DNA of 12,747 bases from Escherichia coli (GTDB lineage Bacteria; Pseudomonadota; Gammaproteobacteria; Enterobacterales; Enterobacteriaceae). A model generated the notes under the pieces. The model made no database searches. It was not told the DNA's origin and worked only from the letters and a program-made list of their open reading frames with translations. The stretch is from NCBI RefSeq assembly GCF_003334255.1, contig NZ_QOWU01000081.1. One strand, written 5' to 3'. The first letter of the stretch is position 1. Every line of letters begins with the position of its first letter. Positions 1,298 to 3,153 of this stretch are shown one piece after another. The position numbers and the translations under genes were made by a program.

Positions 1298-1318
1298 AAA
1301 AAACCCGCCGAAGCGGGT
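1298..1318 (-). terminator. Rho-independent terminator ending the 216-aa/HTH-peptidase operon
   Basis: Plus-strand AAAAAACCCGCCGAAGCGGGT; on the minus strand this is a CCCGC/GCGGG stem with a 4-nt loop followed by a U6 tract, 5 nt after the stop of the 1323-2426 gene. Confidence 0.65.
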
Positions 1319-1322
1319 ATAC

Positions 1323-2426
1323 TCAAACAATCTGGAAAATATTTCTTGGATTTGTAATAGGTCTGTTGATGGAGAACAACTCACGAATTAAATCTTGGCT
1401 CAAGCCAGTTTTCATAAGAATTCTTAGCCAGGTTGCATCATCCAGCATTTCAATCGCCTCGGCCAGCATGCCGGGTTCTTCAGGGCGCAAAAGTTCATCA
1501 CCAGGTTCAACTCTCGTATACCCTCTGGAATTAAGATGCATATAGCCAGTTCTTGCCTGTTCCTGGGTCAATAAGCCTAATGCGCTGGCTCGATAAATAC
1601 ACATTTTAAGGCTGATTTTCCATCTAAGTTTAAATTCAACCAGAGCATTCCAGTCGAATTGCTTACCTCGTATTCGTGGAAATTCTTTAATGAAAGATAA
1701 CCTGGGAACTAATAAGGCGCTCGAAAAGTGATCGGCTTGTGATTCCGTAAGTTTATCACCTGTCGTTATGCCCTCATGCATTACTAAATGCCCTAATTCA
1801 TGACCTAAATCAGAGCGAAATCTACATATGCTTTTTTTAACATTGTTCCTGATGATAACAGGCCTGTTATTGTGAACAGTAAAAGCATCAACACGATCAT
1901 CGACTCCCGTAACATGCGCAACGATTACCCCTAAACTCTCCGCCAATTTAACCATTGATGATATAGGGCCAAGACCTAAATTCCAGGCACGGCGACAATC
2001 TTCTGCCACTCGCTCAATATCATTCGGAGTAAGTAATTCAGCCCCTGGGTGCTCCGGTATGTTAACGTCAGGAAATTCGATTTCACCTTCAACAGCAGAA
2101 ATTATAATATTAAGAATCTCAGCCCTGGCCAATACACTATTAGTCAGCGTTTGAGTCCTGGACTTCTTACTCCGAAAATGGCAGACATCACTTTCCAGAG
2201 CGTATTTTCGTTCAGTAAAAAGAAAACTGGACTTAATCATAAGCGCTGAAGATATTAACTCAAGACATTGCTCCGATGGCCTGCACCCCTTCTCCAGTTT
2301 GCTAACGAATTGCTTTGTCTTGCCAATTTTTTCGGCTAACTCTTCACAAGAAAGCCCAACAGCCATTCTCGCTAGTTTGAGCTTATCACCCCGATACTCA
2401 GTGAAGTTATTCACCTGATGTTCCAT
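1323..2426 (-). CDS. Fused XRE-family HTH / ImmA-IrrE (COG2856) zinc-metallopeptidase, about 367 aa
   Basis: N-terminal HTH (LKLARMAVGLSCEELAEKIGKTKQFVSKLEKG); zinc-peptidase motif HELGH followed by LVMHEG at about residues 210-220; downstream conserved ...ESQADHFSSALLVP... typical of COG2856. The ORF track starts at GTG 2429; the ATG at 2424-2426 is the more likely start. Overlaps the upstream gene by 20 nt. Confidence 0.85.
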   Translation of the reverse strand: MEHQVNNFTEYRGDKLKLARMAVGLSCEELAEKIGKTKQFVSKLEKGCRPSEQCLELISSALMIKSSFLFTERKYALESDVCHFRSKKSRTQTLTNSVLARAEILNIIISAVEGEIEFPDVNIPEHPGAELLTPNDIERVAEDCRRAWNLGLGPISSMVKLAESLGVIVAHVTGVDDRVDAFTVHNNRPVIIRNNVKKSICRFRSDLGHELGHLVMHEGITTGDKLTESQADHFSSALLVPRLSFIKEFPRIRGKQFDWNALVEFKLRWKISLKMCIYRASALGLLTQEQARTGYMHLNSRGYTRVEPGDELLRPEEPGMLAEAIEMLDDATWLRILMKTGLSQDLIRELFSINRPITNPRNIFQIV

Positions 2427-3057
2427 CACTGCTCACATCCAAATCTTTATCCTTCGTACGCCGACGAAGAGGCACCTTATTAATCTCCGCTTCGTCAGGG
2501 AGTGTGTTATAATCAAGAGGCATAAGCGGCATCGATGCTGTAGATTGATGAGAAACTATACTAATCTGAGCACCATAAGTATTAAATCCAACAAGAGCTA
2601 CCTCCCAACGAGGCAGTGTGGACTCTAATTCACCATCGCCCTCTTCGGATAAAAAAGGCTCAGCTATGACTCGCCATGTAATATCTTGCTCAGCCTCAAC
2701 ATCACCAAACAATGAGAGCTGCTCATACTCTACTTTATTTCGACGCAGACGATGTTTCTTTTTGGGGTTATTAATGCAATCTTTGGTAAATTGTAGCGGA
2801 ACTTTATTTAAAGCAACTACATAGTCCAACCCCTTGGAAATCATCTCAAGGCCAGGAATTGCATCTTCATTTTGAATAAGATGATTTCTGACCCAATCAT
2901 AAGCCCTTACACCTTCAGACCAGTTGCTGTCTAATGCGTGCTTATGATAGTACAGCTGCTCAAGTACGTTAGCGATCTCCGCCAACAAGTGGCGAACATA
3001 GTTTTCAGCAAGATAAGGTTGAAATTCCCAACAAGGAGCTAACTGATTTTCATTCAT
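2407..3057 (-). CDS. Uncharacterised 216-aa protein with acidic C-terminal tail; first gene of a two-gene operon with the HTH-peptidase
   Basis: ORF track; ATG 3055-3057, TGA 2407-2409 overlapping the downstream start. No Shine-Dalgarno sequence evident. No family recognised. Product begins MNENQLAPCWEFQPYLAENYVRHLLAEIANVLEQLYYHKH. Confidence 0.7.
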   Translation of the reverse strand: MNENQLAPCWEFQPYLAENYVRHLLAEIANVLEQLYYHKHALDSNWSEGVRAYDWVRNHLIQNEDAIPGLEMISKGLDYVVALNKVPLQFTKDCINNPKKKHRLRRNKVEYEQLSLFGDVEAEQDITWRVIAEPFLSEEGDGELESTLPRWEVALVGFNTYGAQISIVSHQSTASMPLMPLDYNTLPDEAEINKVPLRRRTKDKDLDVSSDGTSGE

Positions 3058-3092
3058 TTCAAGTTTCGCTTTTTTTAGAATTCGTAAACCAC

Positions 3093-3121
3093 ATATTTTC
3101 GCATTTTTCTATTTTTGTCAA
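3093..3121 (-). promoter_or_regulatory. Candidate sigma70 promoter for the 216-aa/HTH-peptidase operon
   Basis: On the minus strand: TTGACA (3116-3121), 17-nt spacer, AAATAT (3093-3098), about 35 nt upstream of ATG 3057. The -10 element is weak. Confidence 0.35.
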
Positions 3122-3133
3122 CCAGACTAATGC

Positions 3134-3153
3134 AAAAACCCGCCGAAGCGGGT
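3134..3153 (-). terminator. Rho-independent terminator of the hok mRNA
   Basis: Plus-strand AAAAACCCGCCGAAGCGGGT, the same 20-mer as at 1299-1318; on the minus strand a hairpin followed by a U5 tract, about 70 nt after the hok stop. A second GC-rich fold-back (GGCGGGGGAG...CTCCCGCC, 3190-3215) lies between hok and this terminator. Confidence 0.65.

Follow-up and report, generated by a model that had tools for sequence, protein, structure and literature searches.

A two-gene cassette of an Escherichia coli prophage assigned by its profile matches to the RosmerTA toxin-antitoxin family

In a 12,747-nucleotide stretch of Escherichia coli DNA (all of it referred to here as the window), we analysed the gene anatomy, family membership, co-conservation, mobility and insertion boundaries of a cassette of two overlapping minus-strand genes, which encode proteins of 216 and then 367 amino acids. 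Judged by its sequence profiles, this pair belongs to RosmerTA, an anti-phage toxin-antitoxin family named in 2022, and we call the genes rmrT and rmrA. Our overall reading, to which we give a probability of roughly 85%, is that the cassette is a RosmerTA-type toxin-antitoxin or abortive-infection module carried as a prophage insert. An earlier note on this DNA had regarded the pair as undescribed and as part of no named system, a view overturned by the PADLOC RmrT and RmrA matches and by 29% identity (over 300 aa, E 2e-35) between the larger protein and the experimentally verified RmrA of OLC-716. Its broader proposal was right in kind: the pair appears to be an effector or toxin gated by an HTH-COG2856 peptidase, probably for phage defence or as a toxin-antitoxin switch, and is prophage cargo. 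RosmerTA has been described as a zinc-peptidase antitoxin with a toxin of unknown function, for which a ΔrmrA mutant was not obtainable (Millman 2022). The name corrects the RefSeq labels (‘hypothetical protein’ and ‘helix-turn-helix domain-containing protein’) and marks out the cassette as probably a defence or addiction module borne by a prophage. The features referred to below are as follows.

2407..3057, minus strand: rmrT, toxin candidate; ORF of 216 aa, product acidic (pI 4.9) and soluble
1323..2426, minus strand: rmrA, putative antitoxin/regulator; ORF of 367 aa, or 368 aa from a GTG at 2429
2407..2426, minus strand: 20-nt overlap of the rmrT stop and the rmrA start, read from the sequence
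2211..2390, minus strand: XRE-type HTH part of rmrA, residues 13-72 (Pfam HTH_3 and HTH_31)
1578..1949, minus strand: M78/COG2856 zinc peptidase part of rmrA, residues 160-283 (PF06114, PADLOC capP)
2707..2721, minus strand: QLSLF codons, RmrT residues 113-117, candidate β-sliding-clamp-binding motif, read from the sequence
3058..3123, minus strand: promoter and leader, 66 nt, defined by conservation across genera; presumed promoter/operator function
3134..3153, minus strand: upstream copy of the hairpin, namely the terminator of hokD/sok, where the insertion ends on the right, from the direct repeat and the terminator scan
1293..1318, minus strand: intrinsic terminator of the cassette with the second 20-nt repeat copy (1299-1318), left edge of the insertion

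The RefSeq CDS annotation at the locus consists of exactly these two ORFs, which confirm the 20-nt overlap described in the earlier note; the first gene ends in TAA, however, rather than in the TGA given there. The overlap is kept in six of seven orthologous cassettes, being 14 nt in Xenorhabdus, and suggests translational coupling. The same terminator hairpin borders the cassette on both sides. The terminator scan found terminator-like minus-strand hairpins at 1303-1318 and 3137-3154, the former bearing out the proposal that the cassette has its own terminator, and positions 1299-1318 and 3134-3153 form a perfect 20-nt direct repeat. The neighbouring hok/sok genes had also been correctly recognised: hokD and sok lie directly upstream, and the cassette is a 1835-bp insertion adjoining them, bounded by the duplicated terminator. 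The corresponding site in phage mEp460_ev081 is empty, with a single terminator copy and no cassette. Buttiauxella and L010 have the same hairpin 3′ of rmrA, both without a hok gene there. As had been noticed, the cassette is AT-richer than its flanks (GC ~0.42-0.43 versus 0.49-0.55). The host element is a Rac-like lambdoid E. coli prophage, in whose nin region the cassette sits as a ‘moron’. With its sharp boundaries and its terminator duplicated on both flanks, the unit illustrates well how such modules hop between prophage hot spots.

The assignment to RosmerTA draws on both genes and on their arrangement. The two genes are adjacent and co-oriented, overlap, and appear to share a promoter and a terminator, as in a RosmerTA operon. 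The second encodes the antitoxin expected of this family, an M78/COG2856 zinc peptidase with an N-terminal XRE HTH, and matches PADLOC model PDLC03943 (E 6e-105, 349 bits) as well as 13 other RmrA models. The first encodes a protein that matches the catalogued RmrT profile PDLC03929 with a moderate score (E 4.6e-25, 86 bits) but over nearly the full length (residues 7-209 against 5-195 of the 198 model positions), and 10 of 10 distant relatives match this same RmrT model. Whereas the window pair matches the first RmrT and the first RmrA models of PADLOC, the verified OLC-716 pair matches the seventh of each (PDLC03935 and PDLC03949), which suggests that toxins and antitoxins form matched subtype pairs. 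The OLC-716 system (Millman 2022) is also a two-gene operon with the toxin first, and its RmrA has the same length and architecture as that of the window (HTH, M78 with HELGH, and an E-x-x-A-D-x-F motif). Both toxins are soluble proteins of ~220-240 aa without a Pfam family and with a Q-L-x-L-type motif in a mid-protein loop, but they match different RmrT models, and BLASTP found no similarity between them. On these comparisons, the toxin subtype of the window differs from the experimentally verified one; our literature search found no paper that mentions the accessions of the window proteins and no experimental record of this subtype.

In RmrA, a linker joins the XRE HTH to the M78 zinc peptidase, which is followed by a C-terminal domain of ~85 aa. 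The N-terminal HTH and the zinc peptidase recognised earlier in the 367-aa protein are both supported by Pfam, with HTH_3 at residues 16-62 and Peptidase_M78 (PF06114) at residues 176-281, and PDB sequence matches of the HTH are to SinR and the 434 repressor. The PADLOC capP model matches residues 160-283 and the capH model the HTH, while the NCBIfam spr1629 model matches below its cut-off (156 bits versus 335). Of the HELGH...HEG zinc motif put forward in the earlier note, HELGH is present (residues 209-213, at 1788-1802), but the third zinc ligand is probably not in HEG; E228 (1743-1745), in a conserved ESQADHF motif, is the likeliest residue. A PF06114 peptidase with HExxH is likewise found in ImmR/ImmA of ICEBs1, DdrO/IrrE of Deinococcus and CapH/CapP of CBASS, and RmrA is most likely switched by their logic, in which a signal triggers a protease that acts on an HTH repressor. 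Unlike in these systems, the HTH and the peptidase are fused in one polypeptide, and no separate small HTH repressor gene lies beside the peptidase, the other cassette gene being without an HTH. Moreover, the partner is a candidate toxin gene, not the excision genes of an element or a CBASS operon.

Upstream of rmrT, the 66-nt leader contains a -35 element TTGACA (3116-3121), a 17-nt spacer and a -10 element AAATAT (3093-3098). The TTGACA proposed earlier as part of a candidate promoter is present, and cross-genus conservation starts exactly at this hexamer, but its best -10 is weak, and for this reason our consensus promoter scan did not call it; we retain it because it is conserved across genera. 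Conservation is higher in the leader than in the genes: the leader is 85-88% identical among E. coli, Enterobacter, Buttiauxella, L010 and Serratia (57% to Xenorhabdus), whereas the coding DNA of the cassette is 62-81% identical across genera with saturated synonymous sites, and the DNA upstream of the leader is unrelated. In the leader lie two tandem units of ~33 nt, GGTTGAC..GCGAAAATAT and GGTTTAC..GCGAAACTT, to which the RmrA HTH may bind as its operator. We consider autorepression somewhat more probable than its absence.

The co-occurrence of the two genes, a check suggested in the earlier note, was found throughout. In 11/11 outside contexts examined, down to ~20-28% toxin identity, an HTH-M78 gene comes after the toxin gene, and each of the 238 matching E. 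coli records has both genes in complete form, none having rmrT without rmrA. The exact cassette occurs in ~4% of complete E. coli genomes (237/5426). Values of dN/dS are 0.06 for rmrT and 0.02 for rmrA. Together with the conserved leader, the pair travels as a unit between prophage positions: in a Serratia prophage it lies between Q and holin, in a Mu-like prophage within the head module, and in L010 it is adjoined by a NACHT protein, in a prophage with an S24-type repressor.

These contexts bear on what the module is for. Family-level experiments make it very probable, by analogy, that RmrT is toxic and that RmrA neutralises it, and an anti-phage role of the window subtype seems to us reasonably likely. 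Protection against phages is established for the RosmerTA systems of Gordonia phage Kita and of E. coli OLC-716, that by Kita RmrTA, a phage-borne pair with an ImmA-domain antitoxin, being narrow (Ernits et al. 2023, PMC10440598). The strongest competing explanation, although clearly the less probable, is that the pair is mainly a prophage addiction or stabilisation module acting by post-segregational killing, like hok/sok, with no real anti-phage role. The pair is a toxin-antitoxin-like bicistron directly beside hokD/sok, and a tblastn search with RmrT against 50,697 phage records found no phage genome with the window toxin, which fits cryptic prophages. The Rosmer-type pair RipAB of Streptococcus pneumoniae (Spr1630/Spr1629; PLoS Genet 2025, PMC12795458), which has an Xre-ImmA-like antitoxin, also lends this explanation support, as its known role is physiological, in competence induction, and not phage defence; unlike the window pair, however, it is chromosomal and from a Gram-positive bacterium. 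Against addiction, besides the protection by other members of the family, stand the classic moron/defence hot spots that the cassette occupies and the adjoining NACHT gene in L010. Addiction and anti-phage roles are not mutually exclusive.

The toxin candidate itself matches little that has been characterised. The claim that the 216-aa protein matches no family holds for Pfam, in which neither RmrT nor any of 61 family members has a match, and for NCBIfam, but not for PADLOC (RmrT) or PHROGs (phrog_5786, E 8e-85). PDB sequence searches with two family profiles found nothing, and Foldseek against AFDB50 returned only uncharacterised proteins of ~200 aa. An AlphaFold2 model from 61 sequences (pLDDT 85.5), which replaced one from 13 close sequences that was too weak (pLDDT 62), suggests for RmrT a possible restriction-endonuclease-like fold that lacks the catalytic motif. 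We found no hydrophobic segment (maximum Kyte-Doolittle value over 19 residues 0.84) and therefore rejected a membrane toxin. Such a fold could instead suggest an active PD-(D/E)xK nuclease that degrades DNA or RNA on release. The PD-(D/E)xK catalytic residues are absent, however: position 78 is variable, and strand β3 reads VPxRF, with no acidic-x-Lys. We consider a nuclease, for which QLSLF would be structural only, unlikely, and a little less likely than addiction.

The motif QLSLF points to a different activity and is the single new lead of this analysis. Proteins that bind the β-sliding clamp share a consensus, the pentapeptide QL[SD]LF or the hexapeptide QLxLxL, and QLSLF of RmrT is a textbook example of it. 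A clamp-motif-like match occurs at the QLSLF alignment column in 37 of the 61 family members, as against 0.0014 per position elsewhere, and the exact motif arises in 53 of 200000 shuffles. In the model, the 10-residue block around QLSLF has a mean pLDDT of 74 (versus 90 and 83 for its neighbours; below 50 in the shallow-alignment model). QLSLF itself runs across the end of a predicted helix and may therefore be part of the structure and not an exposed peptide. Similar clamp-binding-motif-like peptides are found in the verified RmrT family (QLKLDL in the OLC-716 toxin) and among RipA proteins, in which Q-[ML]-E-L-Φ is invariant and the candidate peptide is Q-M-E-L-Φ. RipA belongs to another toxin family (PDLC03931) and acts through the DnaN hydrophobic pocket in dependence on ClpX (PMC12795458). 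Because QLSLF is conserved in position and RipA acts on the DnaN pocket, the candidate mechanism that we prefer is a poisoning of the clamp under the control of RmrA. The window RmrT, the OLC-716 RmrT and RipA have hhalign probabilities below 1%, and we claim no homology among them; with no profile-profile similarity, it is the motif that carries the transfer of the RipA target to the window toxin. On this motif and the RipA analogy, we regard the clamp as a possible target of the window RmrT, at somewhat less than even odds.

We know of no sequence relationship between SocAB and the window pair. Nevertheless, SocAB of Caulobacter crescentus offers a parallel to the proposed action of RmrT, as its toxin blocks replication by binding the β-clamp pocket, and restraint of this toxin depends on ClpXP (discussed in PMC12795458), much as clpX or clpP is essential in strains carrying Rosmer systems. 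SocA, however, is a proteolytic adaptor and not an HTH-peptidase, and clamp targeting by the window toxin is a hypothesis only. The Kita toxin, in contrast to the window RmrT, has a membrane-anchoring C-terminus and depolarises membranes (PMC10440598), and Rosmer toxins therefore do not have one common mechanism. Still, the window family, and perhaps several Rosmer toxin families unrelated to it in sequence, might be non-enzymatic poisons of the β-sliding clamp that act through a conserved internal clamp-binding peptide, and that RmrA and ClpXP keep off the clamp until phage infection; we offer this wider proposal still more tentatively than the target of RmrT itself. If true, it would explain the essentiality of clpX or clpP in Rosmer carriers and make replisome jamming a common abortive-infection output. 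The position-conserved QLSLF is a cheap and direct entry to how the toxin would kill, and it could connect three findings that have stood apart: that RipA acts on DnaN, that Rosmer systems depend on ClpXP, and that they protect against phages.

In the scheme that we propose, the conserved sigma-70-type promoter would give a single rmrT-rmrA transcript, ended by the intrinsic terminator, with the overlap coupling translation of the two genes. RmrA, with its XRE HTH and an M78 domain whose HExxH...E site is intact, would hold RmrT harmless, by repression of the cassette promoter through its HTH, by binding or processing RmrT, possibly aided by ClpXP as in other Rosmer systems, or by both routes. 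A phage that disturbs control by RmrA would free RmrT, and the resulting cell arrest would abort the infection. The toxic step would be poisoning of the clamp by RmrT as a non-catalytic protein of restriction-endonuclease-like fold.

A reversed or more complex division of roles, in which the Xre-peptidase would do the harm and the 216-aa protein would inhibit it or act as a sensor, is improbable. Makarova-type predictions are said to have once cast COG2856 as the toxin, which counts in its favour. In PD-λ-2, moreover, overexpression of the Xre-peptidase PD-λ-2B was reported to be toxic and to be rescued by the upstream gene (Vassallo 2022). However, ΔrmrA was not obtainable in RosmerTA, rmrA is essential in Tn-seq of Pectobacteriaceae, RipB neutralises RipA, and in FDAARGOS_1249 an IS5 interrupts rmrT while rmrA is intact. 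The idea, raised in the earlier note, that RmrA is an ImmA-like anti-repressor which controls induction by cleaving the RacR-type prophage repressor has precedent in M78/COG2856 peptidases such as ImmA of ICEBs1 (ImmA/ImmR, as cited in PMC10440598) and is favoured by the lack of an S24 autoprotease domain in RacR, but we consider it very improbable, as the cassette is absent from closely related, otherwise syntenic phages, occurs at unrelated positions and in prophages with unrelated immunity regions (including the S24-type repressor of L010), is not adjacent to the repressor and brings an HTH of its own, and as the peptidase gene is always accompanied by rmrT.

Two identifications with described systems were rejected. 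PD-λ-2 encodes a P4-antitoxin-like protein besides a HigB-like toxin and an Xre-peptidase, and so has three genes versus two here, and the upstream protein of the window has no RelE, HigB or other Pfam match. The E101 toxin-antitoxin system of Rousset 2021 has T46 in its toxin, as in OLC-716-type RmrT, whereas the window RmrT has W46.

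Both proteins of the two-gene minus-strand cassette are recognised by standard defence-annotation profiles. The 216-aa protein is identified as RmrT by PADLOC-DB profile PDLC03929 (E 4.6e-25), whose positions 5-195 (of 198) align with residues 7-209, and the 367-aa protein as RmrA by profile PDLC03943 (E 6e-105), with matches to 13 further RmrA models. RmrT and RmrA are the two components of RosmerTA, an anti-phage toxin-antitoxin family. The earlier note had proposed the pair as a candidate undescribed module, but the system already carries this name, and the cassette is a new member of RosmerTA rather than a new kind of system. 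The functional intuition of that note, an effector or toxin gated by an HTH-peptidase, was nonetheless good, and the finding is real; the aspects that merit follow-up are the QLSLF motif, which is conserved, and the sharply defined edges of the insertion, both described below. The features of the cassette and its upstream neighbours are:

1303-1318, terminator-like hairpin
1323-2426, minus strand, rmrA, 367 aa (368 aa from a GTG at 2429), RefSeq WP_000401168.1 'helix-turn-helix domain-containing protein'
2407-3057, minus strand, rmrT, 216 aa, RefSeq WP_001004956.1 'hypothetical protein'
3137-3154, terminator-like hairpin
3223-3378, hokD, directly upstream of the cassette
3373-3548, sok RNA, directly upstream of the cassette (Rfam, 120 bits)

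The two ORFs overlap by 20 nt and are the same as the RefSeq CDSs at the cassette; a literature search for the two RefSeq accessions found no paper naming either. RmrA combines an HTH_3 domain (residues 16-62) with a Peptidase_M78 domain (residues 176-281), and the 216-aa protein has no Pfam match. The GC content is ~0.42-0.43 in the cassette versus 0.49-0.55 in its flanks. When we checked ORFs, domains, hairpins, GC content and hok/sok neighbours, the original sequence description proved right except for small details. The stop codon of rmrT is TAA, not TGA, and of the proposed HELGH...HEG zinc-peptidase motif the HELGH part stands (residues 209-213), whereas the third zinc ligand is likely E228 in ESQADHF, a motif common to verified RmrA.

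We compared the pair with the experimentally verified E. coli OLC-716 system, using sequences from the supplement of the Millman et al. preprint. The two RmrA proteins share the same architecture and are 29% identical over 300 aa (E 2e-35). The toxins, on the other hand, are unlike in sequence: no similarity was found between the window RmrT and the verified OLC-716 RmrT, which agrees with the varied RmrT toxins that pair with a common RmrA in the literature. As PADLOC assigns the verified pair to its seventh RmrT and seventh RmrA models and the window pair to the first of each, these assignments indicate that the window carries a catalogued RosmerTA subtype differing from the tested one.

The cassette occurs in 237 of 5426 complete E. 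coli genomes, with at least 99% identity in 224 E. coli records. Co-occurrence of the two genes extends to all fetched outside contexts and to 238/238 matching E. coli records, in which both genes are covered. Orthologous cassettes (toxin identity 53-84%) in Enterobacter, Buttiauxella, Serratia, Xenorhabdus and a further assembly, L010, all pair a gene for 209-223 aa with an overlapping HTH-M78 gene for 367-371 aa. An exhaustive HMM search yielded 69 relatives, mostly ~200 aa long; the same RmrT model was matched by 10 of 10 relatives tested, and an HTH-M78 protein of 366-374 aa follows the relative in three of three fetched contexts at 20-28% identity. Between E. coli and Enterobacter, dN/dS is 0.06 for rmrT and 0.02 for rmrA, values that indicate strong purifying selection on both genes.

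Cross-genus similarity begins abruptly at GGTTGACA. The 66-nt leader of E. coli is 85-88% identical to those of Enterobacter, Buttiauxella, L010 and Serratia, and 57% to that of Xenorhabdus; the coding DNA is 62-81% identical, with saturated synonymous sites. Within the leader, TTGACA and AAATAT are separated by a 17-nt spacer, and two ~33-nt tandem units are also present; we infer that the leader comprises promoter and operator.

In lambdoid phages, mEp460_ev081 and the PPompW phages among them, matches are confined to the sequences on either side of the cassette, which directly adjoin each other there. The aligned empty site of mEp460_ev081 has the hok terminator in single copy, whereas in the window the 20-nt sequence AAAAACCCGCCGAAGCGGGT occurs twice without mismatch (1299-1318 and 3134-3153), which indicates that the cassette is an insertion of 1835 bp. 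Since the Buttiauxella and L010 cassettes end in the same hairpin and the hok gene is absent there, the hairpin belongs to the cassette. Being identical to the hok terminator, it probably served as the site of recombination, and terminator-mediated recombination is suggested as the insertion route.

The position of rmrTA varies: the E. coli and Enterobacter copies are in the nin region (flanked by replication genes on one side and the gene for the late antiterminator Q on the other), the Serratia copy between Q and holin, that of one outside context (L014) among the head genes of a Mu-like prophage, and that of L010 beside a NACHT protein. Such variation in place is typical of moron or defence cargo rather than of a core regulator. 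The L010 neighbour, a 624-aa NACHT/NB-ARC protein (6049-7923) directly downstream of rmrTA, suggests a small defence hot spot in that prophage. The Xenorhabdus prophage (L003, 8449-10355) has ParE/Phd-like and HicA/HicB-like pairs no more than a few kb from rmrTA, with several TA modules clustered in its late regulatory region.

RmrT is acidic (pI 4.9), and no hydrophobic segment was found in it. Its AlphaFold2 model, built from a 61-sequence alignment (pLDDT 85.5, pTM 0.76), has two long helices, a six-stranded sheet and a ~45-residue disordered tail. Residues 113-117, QLSLF, match the consensus β-clamp-binding pentapeptide, QL[SD]LF. A clamp-motif-like match is present in the same alignment column in 37 of the 61 family members (26/61 with the strict pattern), against a background rate elsewhere in the same proteins of 0.0014 per position (strict 0.0006), and the exact motif arose in 53 of 200000 shuffles of RmrT. 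In the family of the OLC-716 toxin, 13/13 close members carry QLxLx[L/F] at a single conserved site in a loop, and six distant members carry NLDLF or NYDMF. RipA (Spr1630), the toxin of the S. pneumoniae Rosmer-type pair RipAB, is reported to act through the DnaN hydrophobic pocket and to depend on ClpX (PMC12795458). Its S. mitis orthologue, fetched via a cloning primer in the same paper, matches PDLC03931, an RmrT model distinct from those of the window and OLC-716 toxins. Throughout the RipA family a Q-[ML]-E-L-[VIF] motif, which we liken to QLSLF, is invariant. Because profile comparison among the three toxin families gave no significant similarity, the shared motif is a lead, not proof. 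The window RmrT and the RipA family also share, around residue 50, a motif resembling [GR]-x-Y-x-W-x-R (residues 51-57 and 42-47, respectively) that is colinear with the Q-L-x-L motif located after it, and OLC-716 RmrT has only a looser G-Q-Y-F-Y at residues 56-60; this may reflect a common ancestral fold.

At the family level, RmrA-type proteins are antitoxins, some Rosmer systems defend against phages, and strains with Rosmer systems cannot do without clpP or clpX; a ΔrmrA mutant was not obtainable, possibly through toxicity (Millman et al.). For the window locus we infer that the RmrA HTH would autoregulate the conserved leader, that RmrT would be neutralised or processed by RmrA, perhaps with ClpXP, and that infection would break this control, whereupon freed RmrT would jam the β clamp. 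In E. coli FDAARGOS_1249 (NZ_CP069459.1, 1256420-1259941), an IS5 in rmrT leaves a 140-aa C-terminal remnant and rmrA is intact, a natural knockout of the putative toxin that agrees with this role assignment. A pure addiction role is compatible with the location beside hok/sok and leaves room for defence as well. The predicted fold would likewise permit RmrT to be an active nuclease, but motif analysis is incompatible with this. Reversed roles of the two genes, as in PD-λ-2, run counter to the family-level genetics. An ImmA-like role of RmrA in prophage induction is unlikely, because the cassette is not always present, is found at differing sites and accompanies immunity regions that are unrelated.

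The element is marked as a Rac/Qin-like lambdoid prophage by the following features:

7427-8760, racR and ydaS/ydaT-like genes
10238-10289, plus strand, DicF small RNA (Rfam RF00039, 62 bits)
10477-10665, plus strand, dicB

Between racR and DicF lies a gene for a 148-aa hypothetical protein (9327-9773, minus strand). Inspected by eye, its translation shows hydrophobic stretches; the protein matches phrog_6315, a group of unknown function, had no match in a PADLOC search, and may represent a further cargo or exclusion gene of the prophage. The nin region also encodes, between DUF977 and hok/sok, an epoxyqueuosine reductase QueH (phrog_3217; 3616-4281, minus strand), an unusual tRNA-modification gene for prophage cargo.
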